NCBI GenBank assembly: GCA_014728035.1 | Contig: WJMJ01000022.1 | Span: 83,608-147,607 of the forward strand | DNA from: Promethearchaeota archaeon | GTDB taxonomy: Archaea > Asgardarchaeota > Thorarchaeia > Thorarchaeales > Thorarchaeaceae | DNA length: 64,000 nt | Direction: 5' to 3' | Part shown: in pieces, positions 2-7,129 of the stretch | Layout of the letters: each line of letters starts with the position of its first letter | Position numbering within the stretch: the first letter of the stretch is position 1 | Program-made: the position numbers and the translations under genes | Notes under the pieces: model-generated | Seen by the model: only the letters and a program-made list of their open reading frames with translations | Databases searched by the model: none | Told to the model about the DNA's origin: nothing

Positions 2-136
2 TTTGCACTTCTGATTACATCAGATGGTGTAATATTCCTTCATGCCTATGTTTCGTTTGATCCTCCAGAAGGAGGCGATCCCGGTCCACCGTTGTATCCT
101 GATGCAGAGATCAATGAAACCGTAAATCTGATGTAA
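2..136 (+). CDS. 3' end of a gene running in from the left edge (hypothetical; ...FALLITSDGVIFLHAYVSFDPPEGGDPGPPLYPDAEINETVNLM*)
   Basis: Open frame from position 2 to TAA at 134-136, translated by hand; same strand as and just upstream of the next gene. Confidence 0.5.
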   Translation, partial: FALLITSDGVIFLHAYVSFDPPEGGDPGPPLYPDAEINETVNLM

Positions 137-178
137 ACAATGGAATCAAATAGGATCAAATCTAGATAAAGAGAGAGA

Positions 179-1309
179 GTGTGTGTAGCGGTGAGCGGGA
201 ATCTAATGAAGGATTATCTGTCATTATTGATTGCCATACAGAATAATCCCTTTGGAACCACAGACGAGCTATCTAGTGAATCCGATATATCTAAACCCAC
301 AGTTATCAAAAGGTTGCGTGTTCTACAAGGTGAAAAACGACTTATCCCTGAGGAAGATCCAAAGAAGTATTTCTCAGTAAAACCCATTCTCAACTATTCT
401 GCACTTGGATTGGAACCTGTTGATATACTTGCAGAAACCTCTGACTTGCAGTCCACAGAAATTCTGGAAAATGTCGCTTACGAGCACCCTTATACTGCTT
501 ACAGAAGCAGATGTTTTGGAAATCCAAATGGGGTGTTGTTTCAATTTAGAACTCCAGCTGGCACCTCCAACCTAATTCAAGAGTTATTCGAAATACTCTG
601 GAATCGAGGAACAATATCAGGTTATCATATTCTACCCGTCAAAGATTCTATTCTACGATACACATCGATGCAACTTACTGGATGGAATGAGAATGACTCT
701 AGGTGGGAATTCGATTGGAAAAGATGGTTCAAAGCATCGACCCGCAAAAGGGTCGAGTCGCATAAGACTTCCACATCCGTGTTAGAAACTTTGACTAAAG
801 ATGATTTGCATATTCTTCGTGAACTTATGGTGGATTCCCGTAGGAAGAACCTTGAGATTATAGAACAATTAGCTCAGCGTGGAGTTGATTTTACACCTCA
901 GACTTATAGCCGTCATCAACAGATGATTAAAGACCAATGTACTCTGGGGTTTAGAGTAGCGATTGATCCTGAACCGTTTGATGTATTAACTAACTTACTT
1001 GTGATAGGAACCGCAGATTCTGAGTATCTGCAAGAACTAGTTGCAAAGACCCAATTCATACCTTTCCCATTCGAATCTACAATTAGGATATCCAACAATC
1101 ATCTGTTTTGGTATATCAGGTTAAATCAAGACCACGTTTCACCACTGCTAAATGGGCTCTTTGAAAAAATAGAAAATATGCGGGTCTGTTTCCTAGACTA
1201 CCGGAACTCGTTTCTCTACAACATCTGGCCTGATGCATTTGATGAAGAAGAAAAAGAATGGCGAGTTGATAGAGCCTTCATGATAGACCGTGTTACCGAC
1301 AGTCTATGA
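179..1309 (+). CDS. Lrp/AsnC-like transcriptional regulator with two tandem wHTH+ligand-binding modules
   Basis: N-terminal HTH (TTDELSSESDISKPTVIKRLRVL) and a second HTH (LTKDDLHILRELMVDSRRKNLEII...TYSRH), each followed by a beta/alpha domain; true start probably 191 or 206. Confidence 0.65.
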   Translation: MCVAVSGNLMKDYLSLLIAIQNNPFGTTDELSSESDISKPTVIKRLRVLQGEKRLIPEEDPKKYFSVKPILNYSALGLEPVDILAETSDLQSTEILENVAYEHPYTAYRSRCFGNPNGVLFQFRTPAGTSNLIQELFEILWNRGTISGYHILPVKDSILRYTSMQLTGWNENDSRWEFDWKRWFKASTRKRVESHKTSTSVLETLTKDDLHILRELMVDSRRKNLEIIEQLAQRGVDFTPQTYSRHQQMIKDQCTLGFRVAIDPEPFDVLTNLLVIGTADSEYLQELVAKTQFIPFPFESTIRISNNHLFWYIRLNQDHVSPLLNGLFEKIENMRVCFLDYRNSFLYNIWPDAFDEEEKEWRVDRAFMIDRVTDSL

Positions 1310-1323
1310 AGACTCAATCAACA

Positions 1324-2367
1324 TTAGTTGCCTTTTGTTACTTTGAATACTGATATTGGTGTGGCTGTTTCGAATCTTGCTGCTCCTGCTTCTTTTACCC
1401 ATTCTTCCATGGTGTCTTTGTAAAAGAACCCATAAGCTCCCTCTACGACTTTGAAATGGGCTTCACCATACTTGTTTGCGTCTGGGTAGAAATTCTGAGT
1501 GCCAAATAGGAAACCGCCAGGTTTTAGCACACGAAGCATCTCTGTGATGGCACTTTTTGGATCTGTCCAGTGTAGCACTTGGGATGCATAGACAATATCA
1601 AAGGTCTCATCATCGAAGGGGATGTTTTCAGCATATCCTGGATGAAACTCCACCGGGAATTCGTTTACTTTGTCTTTGATACTCATGTCATGTCCGTTGT
1701 GCTCGGAGACCATCTGGGCAAACTCCTCTTGTGCTATCCGAAGAAGATTCTCATCTGGATCGATTGCTACTATCTGCATTGGGGACCCATTTTGGAATAG
1801 ATCGTTTTCATAGTAGTAAGACCAGATTGCGGCTGTTCCCCGGCCGTTTCCAGAGCCTACATCTAGAAATCTTATAGGCTCTTTCAGCGCGTCTGCAAAA
1901 GCAAAAGCTGCGCGGCGAATTTGTTCATAGAGCTTGTTTGACAGTGCGTCGTCCCAGTTGAATAGATTGAGACCTCCTGTAAATTCAATGTACTTCCCTC
2001 TAAGTCTGTCAGGTATAGCTCTTGCGTGGTCAACCCAAAGTTCTTGCATGGCATCATCAAAACAGCTTGGGCATTGCCAGGCAAATTGAATCTCTTCGTC
2101 GATGAAAAGGTGGTCATCATCTTGTTCGATCACGCCATCCTCTAGCAAGATTGATAGAAGATATTCTAGGAATTCAATATCTGTATATTTGTACTCCGAT
2201 GCAATCTCCATGATAGTTTTAGGTTCTCTCAGTAAGTCGAACCAACCTTCATTTCTTAAAACTCCCAGAATATTTCCTCGAAAGAAGATGTCTATTTCTG
2301 TTCTGAGTTTTGACACATTCAAACCAAGTTTCATTAGTTCTTTCCAAGCTTTCAATTTTCTAATCAT
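1324..2367 (-). CDS. Class I SAM-dependent methyltransferase (Methyltransf_11/UbiE-like) with N-terminal wHTH-like domain
   Basis: Motif I FLDVGSGNG, post-I AIDPD, AENIPFDDETFDIV, LHW, EMLRVLKPGG; GGAGGTG SD upstream. Confidence 0.85.
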   Translation of the reverse strand: MIRKLKAWKELMKLGLNVSKLRTEIDIFFRGNILGVLRNEGWFDLLREPKTIMEIASEYKYTDIEFLEYLLSILLEDGVIEQDDDHLFIDEEIQFAWQCPSCFDDAMQELWVDHARAIPDRLRGKYIEFTGGLNLFNWDDALSNKLYEQIRRAAFAFADALKEPIRFLDVGSGNGRGTAAIWSYYYENDLFQNGSPMQIVAIDPDENLLRIAQEEFAQMVSEHNGHDMSIKDKVNEFPVEFHPGYAENIPFDDETFDIVYASQVLHWTDPKSAITEMLRVLKPGGFLFGTQNFYPDANKYGEAHFKVVEGAYGFFYKDTMEEWVKEAGAARFETATPISVFKVTKGN

Positions 2368-2381
2368 AATTTCACCTCCTT

Positions 2382-3296
2382 TTATCTTAGTAGCCCTCGC
2401 CTATCCACATAATCTAGCATATCGAAAATTTGTGAAATCTTACCTATTTGCCCCTGTTCGAGGAGATTGATTACACTTGCAGTTCCACTTAACAGTGGCA
2501 TAAGAATTTCTTTTGCAAAGGGATATTTGCGTTCAACTCGCTCCACAATAGATGGTATTCGAGGTATGAATCCAAATTCAATTTTTGAGTATAGTCGATC
2601 ATCGGAAGCCAACCTGATTAGTATCTCTGGATTTATCTTTGGATATTCTGATATTACATGCAATCCTAGAATGAGTAAACGTTTGTCAGGTATTGCATCC
2701 CGATGTGTGTTTTTTGTCAGCTCTTTAAGAAGAATTTTGATAGATGTTATAGCTGCCGCTCCCTTAGCGGTCACGCAGGCAACTCTTGAATTATTAATCC
2801 AGATTCGCAAGTCTTGATCTGCAATTGTAAAACTCATCTCCTCTGGTAGAGTTTCATATACGCGTTCTGCCTCCTCTACTTTTTTATCGAGTAACCTAGC
2901 AAGTTCTAACAATCGCACTTTCTCGCTTCCTAGCCCTTCCATGACCCACGAGTCAATTCTGTCCATAATGAATACATTCTCAAGGTAGGGGTGCGTATGT
3001 AGTGCATCAGGTTTTTGAGATACTAGCCAGAGTCTTTTTTCTTCTTCGAGCTTATCAATCTGTTCGACAAAAGCATCTTTGTGACCACGGAATAGATGTT
3101 TATGGTCCACAACTACAGTGTTAACATGACGTTCATTTCCAATCTCGTGAGCAACTCGATACGTTGTGAGTTGCATACCAAAGAATTTCTCATGTGTTGT
3201 CTTTGACTCGAATGTTGTTGGGTTTTCAGGATCAAATTTGATAGGCTCATTACATACAGCACATTGAAACTGTGTTATCTGTTGAATTTGACTCAC
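2382..3296 (-). CDS. Hypothetical protein: N-terminal CxxC/His Zn-binding domain, central longin/roadblock-like region, C-terminal winged helix
   Basis: GTG start overlaps the GTPase TAG at 3296 and follows AAGGAGGT; CAVC...H...HVNTVVVD..RG; C-terminal LLSGTASVINLL...FDMLDYVDRRGLL. Confidence 0.6.
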   Translation of the reverse strand: MSQIQQITQFQCAVCNEPIKFDPENPTTFESKTTHEKFFGMQLTTYRVAHEIGNERHVNTVVVDHKHLFRGHKDAFVEQIDKLEEEKRLWLVSQKPDALHTHPYLENVFIMDRIDSWVMEGLGSEKVRLLELARLLDKKVEEAERVYETLPEEMSFTIADQDLRIWINNSRVACVTAKGAAAITSIKILLKELTKNTHRDAIPDKRLLILGLHVISEYPKINPEILIRLASDDRLYSKIEFGFIPRIPSIVERVERKYPFAKEILMPLLSGTASVINLLEQGQIGKISQIFDMLDYVDRRGLLR

Positions 3297-3961
3297 TATG
3301 CTACCTCCTTTTTGAAGAGATGGTCCACCAGCCAACGTTTTATACCATTCATTCCTTGTCCTGTCATACAGCTAATCTCAAAATATTCAACTATCTGGGG
3401 ATTGCCATGGAGAATCGCTTCAATCAACCCTTTGTCCATGGTGCAGTTCAAATCACACTTGTTTCTGACTAGGATAAAGTCGGGAGTTGGGCTTTTTGTC
3501 TGTGATATATAATAGCCAGTCAGCAAGTCCATCCATTCAGTCAAATCAATTAATGATTGAATATTGTCACTTGCAAAAACAAGGATGACTACATCCACAC
3601 CTCCGAGAGCAGTTCGACTAATATCTTTGAGTGCATGAATAGGGGAGTCGAGCTGTCCAGAAATATCGACCATTTGACATACTCCAGTAATGTCTTCCTC
3701 TACTAGATCGGAAGCTGCTATTGCAGATAGGTCGATGAAATGTGTTCGGTGATATTCTGCTTCTCCCTCAAGCAATTCTCCAAGGCTCTTTTTCTCTCTC
3801 AGAACCGTTAGTAAGCTGGTTTTTCCAACGGCCCCAGACCCTGCCATCAGAATCTTTCTGATTCCTTTTCGCAGTTTTATTTCTTCTATCATACTCCGGG
3901 ATGTTTCAGGCTCGTGTTCTTTGGCAGTCAATTTACTCGCACTCATTTTTATCACAGGCAA
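3296..3961 (-). CDS. Ras-superfamily small GTPase
   Basis: G1 GSGAVGKTS, G2 HRT, G3 DISGQ, G4 NKCD, G5 EISC. Confidence 0.9.
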   Translation of the reverse strand: MPVIKMSASKLTAKEHEPETSRSMIEEIKLRKGIRKILMAGSGAVGKTSLLTVLREKKSLGELLEGEAEYHRTHFIDLSAIAASDLVEEDITGVCQMVDISGQLDSPIHALKDISRTALGGVDVVILVFASDNIQSLIDLTEWMDLLTGYYISQTKSPTPDFILVRNKCDLNCTMDKGLIEAILHGNPQIVEYFEISCMTGQGMNGIKRWLVDHLFKKEVA

Positions 3962-4225
3962 ATATACTCCATTATGATATAATAGTAAAATTTAGATATA
4001 AATCTTTACTATTCTACCACTTTCTATTTTTTGCAAAACTGTGCTTTTTTCTAATAGTTAGAAAAAATTGACCATAGAAATATTAGACAAAAAGAGTCGT
4101 TTTTGTATGAGTGAACTAAGGATGTATTGTGTTCTTAGTAGAGATATTTGATTGCGCATGCGAGTACTTTATAGCAGACTTCTTTTTCGGTTCCATAGTC
4201 AATACCACCAATCGAGGTCAATACA

Positions 4226-7129
4226 GTGAGTGAATTCATTAAAATCGAGAAAAAATGGCAGAAACGCTGGAAGAAAGACAAGGTCTTTGAAGCTGACCCG
4301 ATTTCAAAAAAGAATAAGTTCTTTCTCACAGTTCCCTATCCATATACAAATGGAGCATTACATATCGGTCACGGAAGAACATACACTGTTGGAGATCTAA
4401 TTGCTCGATATAAACGAATGCGTGGCTATAATGTTCTGTTTCCTATGGCTTCACACATGACAGGTACGCCTATTCTGGGTATGGTTGAAAGAATCAAAGC
4501 CGGTGATCCAAAAGCTATAGAGCAGTACACACGAGACCTGCGTTTGTATTTTGACACAGAGGATGAAGTAGAAGCTCAGTTAGCAAAATTCACAGATCCC
4601 TGGGTGACTGCAAAATTCTTTGCTGATATCATCTCTAAAGACTTTGATGCACTTGGGTATAGTATTGACTGGAGAAGAAAATTCACAACTGGCGATAAGA
4701 TATACAATGCATTCATTCGATGGCAGTATCTCAAGTTTAAAGAAAAGGGATACATCAAACAGGGAAACTATCCCTTACTATTTTGTCCAAACTGTGGCAA
4801 TCCCGTAGGAGAGGATGACCTACTAGAGGGTGAAACCGCTAAGGTAAAGGAATTTGTGGCAATAAAATTCCCGTTCGAAGATGGCTTTCTAGTACCAGCA
4901 ACCCTTCGTCCAGAAACCATCTTTGGGATAACCAACATGTGGATTAACCCAAGTGCGACATACGTTTGGGCAAATGTTGATGGCGAGAAATGGGTGGTGG
5001 CAAAAGCAGCAGTCGAGAAGCTGAAGCTTCAAGCTAAAGAGGTTGAAATCCTCGAAGAGTTTCCCGGGTCAGAAATCATTGGTAAGTCTCACAAGGCTAT
5101 TCACGAAGACAGAGATGTACCCATTCTTCCAGCTCCCTTTGTAAATCCTCAGAATGCAACAGGTGTTGTTTATTCAGTTCCTGGTCATGCACCGTTTGAC
5201 TATATTGCCTTACGTGACTTGTGGGATGACCCATCAGGATTGGATAAGTATGGTATCACGCCTGAAGACGTCCACGCTATTGAGATAATCGGGATGATTG
5301 ACATCAAAGGTTATGGCAAGTATCCTGCAAAAGAAGCTGTTGAGAAACGAGATATCAAGTCGCAGAGCGAAGGCCAAAAACTGGAAGATGCAACTCAAGA
5401 AATCTACAAAGCAGAATTCTATGAGGGCAAAATGAAGGACAACTGTGGTGAATTTTCAGGTCGTCTGATTAAAGAAGTCAAAGATGACGTGATTGCTTGG
5501 CTAAAAAAGAATAACCGCTGTGATAAATTCTATGAACCAGATACACGTCCTGTGGTCTGTAAATGCGGTACTGATGTACAAGTCGGTGTCTTTGCAGGTC
5601 AGTGGTTTCTTGATTATCAAAGCGAGGGTTGGAAGGAAACAGCTTGGAAAGCATTGAATGAGATGGATATCGTTCCTGAAACTTTCAGAAATCTGTTTGA
5701 AGCTACCTTTGATTGGTTAACACAACGTCCTTGCGCAAGGAAGCGTGGTATTGGTACTCGTTTACCATTTGACGAGGAATGGATAATTGAGTCATTATCA
5801 GACTCTACAATCTATATGGCATTCTATACAATCGCTCATCATATCAAACAAAATAAGATTAAAGAAGACCAATTGGTTCCTGAAGTCTTCGATTATGTCT
5901 TTCTAGGAAAACGGACTCCTGCTAAAATTGCTGAGCAGACTGGAATTGATGCAAAATTACTCAAGACAATGCGTAATGAGTTCAAGTATTGGTATCCAAA
6001 TGATCAACGGCACACAGCGCCCTCACACATCTCTAATCATTTGAGTTTCGCAATATTTCATCATGTAGCTATCTTTCCAGAGAAAAACTGGATACAATGT
6101 ATCAGCTTGAATGAGCATGTCAATCTGGAAGGAATGAAGATGTCCAAGAGCAAAGGTAATGTCATTCCACTTGTTGAAATACCCAAAAAATACGGGGCTG
6201 ATGTCTATCGTACATACGCGATATCAGCAGCAGAACCTGGAAGTCTCATGGACTTTCGTGAAAAGGATGTACCTGCTGTCCGTAACCGAATCAATAACTT
6301 TCAAGAGATTGTTACGAAATATTCCAAGAAAACACCAAAAGTCTATAGAAAGAAAGACAAGCCCACTTTGATGACACGTTGGCTGTTATCTAAAGTCAAT
6401 TCACTCGTAGACCAATGTACCACTGATTTGGATAACTTCCGTCTTCGTGATTATGCTATTCGAGCGACATCGGAGATGGCACGAGCAGTCAATATGTATC
6501 TAAATCGGCCTGAAGTGCCAGATGAAGAACGTGATGGTACACTGGCATATGTTGCTGATATCTGGGTCAGGTTGATGGCTCCCATGACTCCCCACATTTC
6601 TGAAGAGCTCTGGCATAAGCTGGGGCGTGATAATTATGTTTCTCTGACCGATTGGCCGAAAGCTGACAAAAAACTGATTGATTCTGCTGTGGAATCCTCT
6701 CTTGAAGTAGTTAGAAACACTCTGGCTGATGTTCGTGAAATCACCCGATTATTGAAAGATAAAACTCCATCCAAGGTGTACATGTATGTGGCACCACAAT
6801 GGATGTTTGATGCAATGAATAGTATTGAAGAGGCTAACATACCCACAATCATTGGAAAGATTATGAAGCACCTCATGTCTAATCCTGAGTTTCGAAAACA
6901 TGGCAAAGAGGTCAAGTCCATTGTTGACCGTATCGCCAAAGAGAATGGATTATGGGTACATTCAGAGAGTGCTAAGGATGAGATACAGATTCTAGAAGAT
7001 TCTACATCATTCTTAGAAACCGAATTAGGCCTAAAGGTGATTATTCATTCTGCAGAAGAACCTGAATACGATCCACAAAACAAAGCTCGTTTCGCATTAC
7101 CCGGTCGTCCCTCTCTATTGCTCGAGTAA
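4226..7129 (+). CDS. leuS: Leucyl-tRNA synthetase, archaeal/eukaryal type
   Basis: PYPYTNGALHIGH, ATLRPET editing-domain motif, KMSKS, C-terminal ALPGRPSLLLE. Confidence 0.97.
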   Translation: MSEFIKIEKKWQKRWKKDKVFEADPISKKNKFFLTVPYPYTNGALHIGHGRTYTVGDLIARYKRMRGYNVLFPMASHMTGTPILGMVERIKAGDPKAIEQYTRDLRLYFDTEDEVEAQLAKFTDPWVTAKFFADIISKDFDALGYSIDWRRKFTTGDKIYNAFIRWQYLKFKEKGYIKQGNYPLLFCPNCGNPVGEDDLLEGETAKVKEFVAIKFPFEDGFLVPATLRPETIFGITNMWINPSATYVWANVDGEKWVVAKAAVEKLKLQAKEVEILEEFPGSEIIGKSHKAIHEDRDVPILPAPFVNPQNATGVVYSVPGHAPFDYIALRDLWDDPSGLDKYGITPEDVHAIEIIGMIDIKGYGKYPAKEAVEKRDIKSQSEGQKLEDATQEIYKAEFYEGKMKDNCGEFSGRLIKEVKDDVIAWLKKNNRCDKFYEPDTRPVVCKCGTDVQVGVFAGQWFLDYQSEGWKETAWKALNEMDIVPETFRNLFEATFDWLTQRPCARKRGIGTRLPFDEEWIIESLSDSTIYMAFYTIAHHIKQNKIKEDQLVPEVFDYVFLGKRTPAKIAEQTGIDAKLLKTMRNEFKYWYPNDQRHTAPSHISNHLSFAIFHHVAIFPEKNWIQCISLNEHVNLEGMKMSKSKGNVIPLVEIPKKYGADVYRTYAISAAEPGSLMDFREKDVPAVRNRINNFQEIVTKYSKKTPKVYRKKDKPTLMTRWLLSKVNSLVDQCTTDLDNFRLRDYAIRATSEMARAVNMYLNRPEVPDEERDGTLAYVADIWVRLMAPMTPHISEELWHKLGRDNYVSLTDWPKADKKLIDSAVESSLEVVRNTLADVREITRLLKDKTPSKVYMYVAPQWMFDAMNSIEEANIPTIIGKIMKHLMSNPEFRKHGKEVKSIVDRIAKENGLWVHSESAKDEIQILEDSTSFLETELGLKVIIHSAEEPEYDPQNKARFALPGRPSLLLE

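Follow-up and report, generated by a model that had tools for sequence, protein, structure and literature searches.

We examined a 64,000-nucleotide stretch of DNA (the window) from a Promethearchaeota archaeon of the family Thorarchaeaceae (GenBank assembly GCA_014728035.1, contig WJMJ01000022.1, positions 83,608 to 147,607), whose metagenome-assembled genome (MAG) has a size of 4.3 Mb and is 97.9% complete. Three co-oriented minus-strand genes near the start of the window form, as we read the sequence, a single operon. They encode a Ras-like small GTPase, a partner protein with a putative zinc module and a predicted longin-fold domain, and a methyltransferase of the class that depends on S-adenosylmethionine (SAM). 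The trio is most likely a self-contained, co-inherited three-protein module of Asgard archaea.

Organization of the operon

The first gene (3296..3946, minus strand) encodes a divergent small GTPase of the Ras superfamily, 216 amino acids (aa) long. The longest open reading frame (ORF) extends from a TTG start over 3961..3296 and would give 221 aa; because the public gene call (P0260) has 216 aa, we place the start at the ATG at 3946. The second gene (2382..3296, minus strand) encodes the partner, a protein of 304 aa that combines the zinc module, the longin domain and a helical C-terminal domain and whose reading frame ends in TAA. The third (2367..1324, minus strand) encodes the methyltransferase, with 347 aa. 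A first-pass annotation of the window had described the three genes as co-oriented and tightly coupled, with the partner GTG overlapping the GTPase TAG behind a Shine-Dalgarno sequence and the methyltransferase starting 14 nt past the partner stop, and direct reading of the minus strand bears out this arrangement at both junctions. Across the first of them the strand reads ...AAAAAGGAGGTAGCATAGTGAGTC, and the G of the GTPase TAG is the first base of the partner GTG, a 1-nt overlap (ATAGTG; computed gap -1 nt). The Shine-Dalgarno sequence of the partner, AAGGAGGT, lies within the last GTPase codons at a spacing of 6 nt from the GTG and forms with the overlap a translational coupling site (3296..3310, minus strand). 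The 14-nt spacer between the partner TAA and the methyltransferase ATG at 2367, AAGGAGGTGAAATT (2368..2381, minus strand), contains a second AAGGAGGT as the Shine-Dalgarno site of the methyltransferase, and the sites of both internal genes are strong.

Conservation and co-inheritance of the three genes

The trio is no chance arrangement of one genome. More than 20 loci, spread over at least four Asgard families, contain it in one of three gene orders. A search based on the partner recovered the order GTPase-partner-methyltransferase in 10 of 10 loci of relatives, with partner identity as low as 29%, and a search of a species-representative genome collection with the methyltransferase profile recovered it in 15 of 18 loci. 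Of the remaining three, one is cut by a contig end, and in two, both Hermod-like, ~4 kb separate the methyltransferase from the partner. Other loci are rearranged but still linked, with the order methyltransferase-GTPase-partner in one genome (G137) and a convergent methyltransferase in two others (G156 and G054). The first-pass annotation had proposed a search for synteny across Asgard genomes, and in our hands the triplet recurs at every partner locus with enough flanking DNA. When the ORFs of 23 loci were clustered all against all, only the three module genes proved common to them, with no fourth. Spacing is also short: the GTPase-partner gap ranges from -17 to +25 nt in related loci where it could be measured, and the partner-methyltransferase gap from 2 to 20 nt in ~16 loci. 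At one locus with two tandem GTPases, 898 nt lie between the distal copy and the partner.

We followed co-occurrence in an even sample of 201 Asgard genomes, defining the methyltransferase family at E<=1e-30, and we give the results as counts rather than as a test because the sampled genomes are related. The methyltransferase is present in 18 of the 201 genomes, which span four families (f1, f9, f14 and f27), and 16-17 of these 18 also have the partner. The exception, with methyltransferase and no partner, is an 89%-complete MAG of 720 contigs, and the partner-only cases are truncated at contig ends.

A paralogue clade with the same seven members is recovered in each of the three trees, of the GTPase, the partner and the methyltransferase, built from 17 complete modules (support 80/99, 99/95 and 100/99). 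Both paralogue types occur in one genome (G009), each with a single module. The recurrence of this clade in three trees, together with the presence of both types in one genome, argues that the whole module was duplicated and diverged as a unit, and the sequences thus record an ancient whole-module duplication. Pairwise distance matrices of the three proteins correlate at 0.70-0.90. Across module loci, identity to the copies in the window is 38-79% for the methyltransferase, 29-67% for the partner and 39-76% for the GTPase; the mean pairwise distance among the 17 modules is lowest for the methyltransferase (0.52), followed by the GTPase (0.56) and the partner (0.62). Copy number varies as well, with tandem GTPases before the partner at three loci (L026, L006 and L007), tandem methyltransferases at another (L022) and two complete modules in tandem at G020:C4:197146-201927.

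A divergent Ras-superfamily GTPase

The G1-G5 motifs, already recorded as intact in the first-pass annotation, are all present in the GTPase (G1 GSGAVGKT, switch-I HRT, G3 DISGQ, G4 NKCD and G5 SC) and are conserved across 24 distinct orthologues. The GQ, NKxD and G5 SC elements are near-invariant there, and at most G1 and HRT positions conservation reaches at least 80% of the sequences. These motifs, together with a Pfam Ras score above the gathering cut-off yet weak (30.5 bits against 21.6), assign the protein by sequence to the Ras superfamily. Matches to Ral and Rab27 among PDB sequences reach only E ~1e-3. We rejected membership in the Rab family sensu stricto, since the protein ends in ...LFKKEVA and has no C-terminal Cys for prenylation; a CaaX-type or conserved terminal motif is likewise absent. 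The equivalents of Gly12 and Gln61 are kept, and GTP hydrolysis would therefore probably need help in trans.

A partner protein with a zinc module and a longin fold

The partner matches no Pfam, NCBIfam or PDB sequence family, and a search of PDB sequences with its profile gave nothing below E 0.5. We therefore describe it from an AlphaFold2 (AF2) model built on an alignment of 26 sequences (predicted local distance difference test score, pLDDT, 87; predicted template modelling score, pTM, 0.67) and from conservation among 26 homologues. At its N-terminus lies a β-rich C2H2 zinc module (residues 8-79; 3060..3275, minus strand) with invariant C12, C15, H50, H57, D64, R70 and D74. The CxxC...H-x6-H site is invariant among the homologues, and C12, C15, H50 and H57 lie in or beside the strands of the module in the model, where we read them as its zinc ligands. 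No Pfam family matches the module in any of the 26 members scanned. All 26 homologues have R70, in the motif [FY]R[GA]H[KR]D, and so does the one 739-aa zinc-module protein examined, which is described below.

The middle domain (residues 105-193; 2718..2984, minus strand) is modelled with the order strand-strand-helix-strand-strand-strand-helix (DSSP: E105-112, E117-122, H129-146, E153-158, E161-168, E171-177 and H183-193), and at the level of the predicted fold it is a longin domain. VIA-align places residues 93-220 on longin or roadblock domains in all of the top 50 matches listed. The VAMP7 longin domain scores Z 9.3 (rmsd 2.8 over 106 aa), followed by synbindin (8.8), Asgard Roadblock3 (8.8), BLOC-3 (8.5), MglB (8.4) and a GATOR1 chain (7.3), so that roadblock matches are tied with longin matches within 1 Z unit. 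Foldseek returned the same longin/roadblock theme with weak matches (E >= 5.6e-3). At the sequence level, neither the partner nor any of its 26 homologues matches a Longin or Roadblock Pfam profile at E<=1.

The C-terminal domain (residues 205-299; 2400..2684, minus strand) comprises six helices and is followed by a conserved flexible tail with the invariant pair R299 R300. The alignment column at which the protein ends is shared by all 26 homologues, and model confidence falls at the tail. Residues 198-304 gave only chance-level matches in a protein structure atlas and no fold relative. The first-pass annotation had described the partner as a zinc-longin-winged helix-turn-helix (wHTH) protein; the zinc site and the longin fold hold up, and the wHTH finds no support in the model, in which the C-terminus is all-helical, with no β wing and no strand after residue 177. 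The absence of strands past 177 also led us to reject a DENN domain, with DENND1A aligning to residues 101-219 only (Z 7.1). In the comparison with NPRL2/NPRL3, including the Asgard 'NPRL2-like' family of Liu et al., neither the partner nor its 26 homologues gave an NPR2 or NPR3 Pfam match, and the GATOR1 chain 8fw5_C aligns over the longin part only (Z 7.3). The longin domain is a platform fold used by eukaryotic and bacterial guanine-nucleotide exchange factors (GEFs) and GTPase-activating proteins (GAPs), and from the fold we infer a GAP or GEF role for the partner.

The GTPase-partner pair and the zinc module

Three natural fusions of the GTPase with the partner exist in databases, one of full length (P0157, 534 aa, with Pfam Ras at residues 36-206) and two partial (P0031 and P0012). 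Such fusions lend support to a direct interaction of the two proteins.

A second line of evidence comes from paralogues. The closest paralogue of the GTPase in the genome, a 200-aa protein of the same branch with 31% identity, is encoded elsewhere (L035, G000:C25:289500-296500, at 2206-2808(+)), directly upstream of a gene for a 739-aa protein (2846-5065(+)). The latter has the same zinc module at its start, together with tetratricopeptide (TPR) repeats (Pfam TPR_12, 2e-10), and six of nine loci encoding such ~740-aa zinc-module TPR proteins have an adjacent GTPase of the same branch. The zinc module is the only element common to the partners of these paralogous GTPases and is therefore the best candidate for the part that binds the GTPase. 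The C-terminal region of the 739-aa protein appears roadblock-like by eye.

Hermod-like genomes (L031, L032 and L045, in G041, G042 and G054) encode a partner orthologue of 394-422 aa with a duplicated zinc module. In one of these loci (L045), the gene directly upstream of the partner encodes a protein of 525 aa with several domains, among them a canonical Ras domain (Pfam 1e-41), and the association with a GTPase therefore persists even where the GTPase is a different one. In the other two, the available C-terminal part of the upstream gene carries an 'SGFLSAMDSF' region. Additionally, about ten proteins of 470-620 aa (P0165-P0177 and P0179) have an N-terminal 'ISGFLSAINTF' domain fused to a complete partner; this domain has no Pfam match and is possibly roadblock- or longin-like. 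Homologues known only from metagenomes include, besides ~610-aa fusions of this kind, proteins labelled Loki, Hod and Odin and the protein P0195.

A methyltransferase related in fold to polyketide C-methyltransferases

The methyltransferase was predicted with high confidence (pLDDT 93, pTM 0.90) and has two parts. Residues 1-158 (1894..2367, minus strand) form an N-terminal helical and winged-helix lid, with the conserved pattern IPxRLRG...NLFNWDDAL...YEQxRRAAF; in the model, a winged-helix unit of the order helix-helix-helix-strand-strand spans residues 18-88 and is followed by a helical cap at residues 105-158. Residues 159-347, with the stop codon, make a class I Rossmann core (1324..1893, minus strand) with the motif I sequence DVGSGNG and an invariant His266 in VLHWTD. 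The Pfam Methyltransf_11 score (70.5 bits, cut-off 21.2), the conserved DVGSGNG and the predicted Rossmann core identify the protein as a class I SAM-dependent methyltransferase. Motif I, H266, R121, D139, Y147 and R151 are invariant in 35 homologues. With its SAM motif, H266 and charged lid residues all invariant, the enzyme looks active.

The whole chain (1-347) superposes best on polyketide synthase (PKS) C-methyltransferases and a free-standing relative from anammox bacteria. Z-scores are 26.3 for CurJ (321 residues), 25.2 for the citrinin CMeT, 24.8 for AprA MT2, 24.2 for DszA, 23.9 for AmxMT1 and 21.6 for PsoF, while generic class I enzymes align over the core only, at Z 17-20. In these structural alignments, the N-terminal domain is common to PKS C-methyltransferases and COMT-type O-methyltransferases. 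The first-pass annotation had noted a wHTH at the N-terminus of the enzyme and had proposed that GTPase state controls a methyltransferase so equipped. The winged-helix unit is indeed there, but it is part of this PKS- and COMT-type domain, a lid, and so gives no evidence of DNA binding or of a separate regulatory input.

PKS C-methyltransferases combine the core with an additional N-terminal domain, use a His-Glu dyad and act on carrier-protein-tethered substrates (PMC9821293). Our enzyme shares with this group a fold at Z 24-26 over residues 1-347, and its invariant His266 is the putative His of such a dyad. No PP-binding carrier protein was detected in the host genome by a search whose control was positive in 11 of 14 reference genomes, which makes a classical acyl-ACP an improbable substrate. 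By sequence, the best match in PDB is LahSB, a SAM-dependent methyltransferase of peptide C-termini. PADLOC gave only a generic match to the methyltransferase core (mad2, residues 153-293) and so lends no support to a role in defence.

The family is sharply bounded: past the full-length, module-type members, E-values rise abruptly from 1e-41 to 4e-8. Nearly all named members are labelled Asgard or 'uncultured archaeon'; two are labelled Methanobacteriota and Ignavibacteria. The former is a homologue filed under 'Methanobacteriota archaeon' (P0052), and the latter belongs to a full Asgard-type trio filed under a MAG of an 'uncultured Ignavibacteria bacterium' (L028, CAZWAO010000108.1); both are probably mis-binned or mislabelled contigs.

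The host genome also encodes a 335-aa methyltransferase paralogue directly upstream of a 240-aa protein (L037, G000:C25:357500-361000, at 787-1794(-) and 64-786(-), respectively). The paralogue keeps the N-terminal lid, has lost the GxGxG motif and the equivalent of His266, and is probably inactive. The 240-aa protein has a 'LFGGLLSAIENV' motif of the kind found in Asgard roadblock/longin-like proteins, and the two may be a second, degenerate methyltransferase-like/longin-like pair. The partner profile has no similarity to the 240-aa protein (hhalign probability 0.1%).

Discussion

On balance, and with modest confidence, we favour a reading of the trio in which a GTPase/longin switch is physically coupled to a dedicated methyltransferase. 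The switch itself would be the Ras-like GTPase, which probably depends on help in trans for hydrolysis. The partner would bind the GTPase through its zinc module and longin platform and would regulate or read its nucleotide state, while its helical C-terminal domain or conserved tail would hold the methyltransferase. In this scheme, the state of the GTPase would gate where or when the methyltransferase acts on a small-molecule or protein-presented substrate. What the analysis shows directly is the operon, its synteny and co-occurrence, the co-duplication, the natural fusions and the folds, while the physical contacts, any GAP or GEF activity, the direction of control and the nature of the substrate are our inference.

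Several observations weigh against a coupled switch of this kind. Of 43 genomes sampled from the same family, just 11 gave a partner match, a patchy distribution from which we conclude that the module is not a core function. No arginine is invariant in the longin domain (residues 105-193) of the 26 partner homologues, so that an arginine-finger GAP of the FLCN/NPRL2 type is not indicated. In Hermod-like genomes, the methyltransferase can lie ~4 kb from the partner, and the neighbouring GTPase is a different, multidomain Ras-family protein. Moreover, the closest structural relatives of the methyltransferase use carrier-protein-tethered polyketide intermediates (PMC9821293), which points to metabolism over signalling, and our enzyme could be a purely metabolic one, dependent on the GTPase and the partner for some unrelated reason.

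The best placed of the other explanations, which we nonetheless consider unlikely, treats the methyltransferase as the input. The methyltransferase-fold protein would report its occupancy by SAM or S-adenosylhomocysteine (SAH) to the partner, which would set the nucleotide state of the GTPase; methylation would not be the output, and the trio would be an archaeal methyl-donor sensing switch. There is precedent in SAMTOR, which has N-terminal helical and methyltransferase domains and shows SAM-dependent binding to GATOR1-KICSTOR, a longin-based GAP complex (PMC10883374), and in Unmet, where an independent methyltransferase has become a sensor of SAM (PMC10245982). The methyltransferase of the trio has a coarsely SAMTOR-like architecture, with a helical lid and a class I core, and its gene is linked to those of a longin protein and a GTPase. 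However, we rejected its membership in the SAMTOR (Bmt2) family, as there is no Bmt2 among its Pfam matches at E<=1 and SAMTOR is absent from its top 50 structural matches. The invariant H266 and the conserved charged residues of the lid also suggest a selected substrate pocket, although an active enzyme could still sense. By analogy, the trio could be an archaeal SAM-sensing GTPase switch, a prokaryotic analogue or forerunner of the SAMTOR/Unmet-GATOR-Rag logic, and to this wider claim we give a rather low likelihood.

We find it quite improbable that the methyltransferase tunes the switch by methylating a component of the module, either the GTPase or the partner tail (...NRR[GR][LI][LF]G). 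The tail has properties of a candidate substrate, as the 26 partner homologues end at the same column with the invariant R299 R300 and model confidence falls there. Structural relatives of the enzyme take substrates from docked carriers (PMC9821293), yet no PP-binding carrier was detected in the genome; the best PDB sequence match is a peptide C-terminal methyltransferase (LahSB), and the invariant lid arginines R121 and R151 could bind a carboxylate. On the other hand, the proposal is purely inferential, the fold class consists mainly of small-molecule and acyl-thioester methyltransferases, the GTPase offers no CaaX-type or conserved terminal motif, and one partner homologue (P0195) has no RR tail. 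Least likely, in our estimate, is a real GTPase-partner switch that merely shares its transcript with an unrelated metabolic enzyme: the fold is that of natural-product enzymes and the methyltransferase is not adjacent to the partner in two Hermod-like loci, but the two have near-identical phyletic patterns across the 201 genomes, their linkage survives three gene orders, all three trees record the co-duplication, and full-length methyltransferase relatives have the partner adjacent or within ~5.5 kb at every locus with enough flanking DNA.

Pairs of GTPases and longin/roadblock proteins are well known. The trio resembles MglA-MglB, Rag-Ragulator, GATOR1 NPRL2/3, FLCN-FNIP, Mon1-Ccz1 and TRAPP in pairing a small GTPase with a protein of longin/roadblock fold. 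In contrast to these regulators, the partner belongs to no longin/roadblock sequence family, with no Pfam match in 26 members; it has in addition a C2H2 zinc module at the N-terminus and a helical domain of unclassified fold at the C-terminus, lacks an invariant longin arginine, and has a methyltransferase as third component. A closer parallel within Asgard archaea is the operon of a roadblock (LAMTOR1-like) protein, a Rab-like GTPase and a DENN-domain protein described by Liu et al. (bioRxiv 10.1101/2020.10.19.343400), which likewise unites a small GTPase with a eukaryote-type regulator fold. Our partner differs in having no central or downstream DENN parts, and the trio has no roadblock gene and does have a dedicated methyltransferase, a word absent from Liu et al. 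(bioRxiv 10.1101/2020.10.19.343400).

With SAMTOR-GATOR1-Rag and Drosophila Unmet-GATOR2, the trio shares a methyltransferase fold with an N-terminal helical domain linked to a longin-based GTPase regulator (PMC10883374, PMC10245982). The link here is genetic only, with no homology to SAMTOR detected, and an apparently catalytic His and a substrate-lid motif are kept. The likeness to PKS-type C-methyltransferases extends over the full-length fold, N-terminal domain included (277-321 aligned residues), and to the His after strand 4; identity is 14-19%, and our enzyme is a free-standing protein whose host genome has no detectable PP-binding carrier.

Our literature searches returned no paper describing the trio and no Asgard GTPase-methyltransferase operon. 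What is new relative to the literature searched is the dedicated methyltransferase as obligatory third member and the zinc module as a tag of the partner. Small GTPases and longin/roadblock proteins are both numerous in Asgard genomes, and assigning a regulator to an individual GTPase has been described as difficult, given how rarely the two occur in one operon (Tran et al. 2024, PMC10933270). In the module, the genome sequence itself matches a GTPase with its likely regulator, natural fusions back the match, and the C2H2 zinc module could serve as a sequence tag for the partners of one GTPase branch. It also adds a concrete enzymatic component with an assayable activity, and since all three proteins are small and have no obvious membrane segments, they should suit reconstitution. 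If the methyltransferase is either the input of the switch, through SAM sensing, or its output, the module would give the first mechanistic insight into the processes under the control of an Asgard Ras-like switch.

Genomic surroundings of the module

Upstream of the GTPase lies an AT-rich divergent intergenic region of 279 bp (3947..4225), shared with the leucyl-tRNA synthetase gene (4226..7129, plus strand) and presumed to hold the operon promoter. On the other side, a plus-strand gene at 179-1309 of the window encodes a 376-aa protein with two helix-turn-helix (HTH) regions (HTH_24, AsnC-type) and converges on the methyltransferase gene, from which 14 nt separate it; only the five closest loci retain it at this place.

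About 3 kb upstream of the window start, on the same contig, lies a second cassette (L036, G000:C151:76000-84500, at 2184-4991), which encodes a seven-transmembrane (7TM) protein, a 165-aa GTPase, a 307-aa Cys/His protein and a 191-aa multi-pass membrane protein. The 307-aa protein shows no similarity to the partner in a profile comparison (hhalign probability 0.6%) and was missed by the hidden Markov model (HMM) of the zinc module, so that a zinc module common to the two proteins finds no support. With its 7TM, GTPase and 307-aa proteins, the cassette is of the general kind of the operon of Liu et al., and together with the trio it places two GTPase modules within 10 kb.

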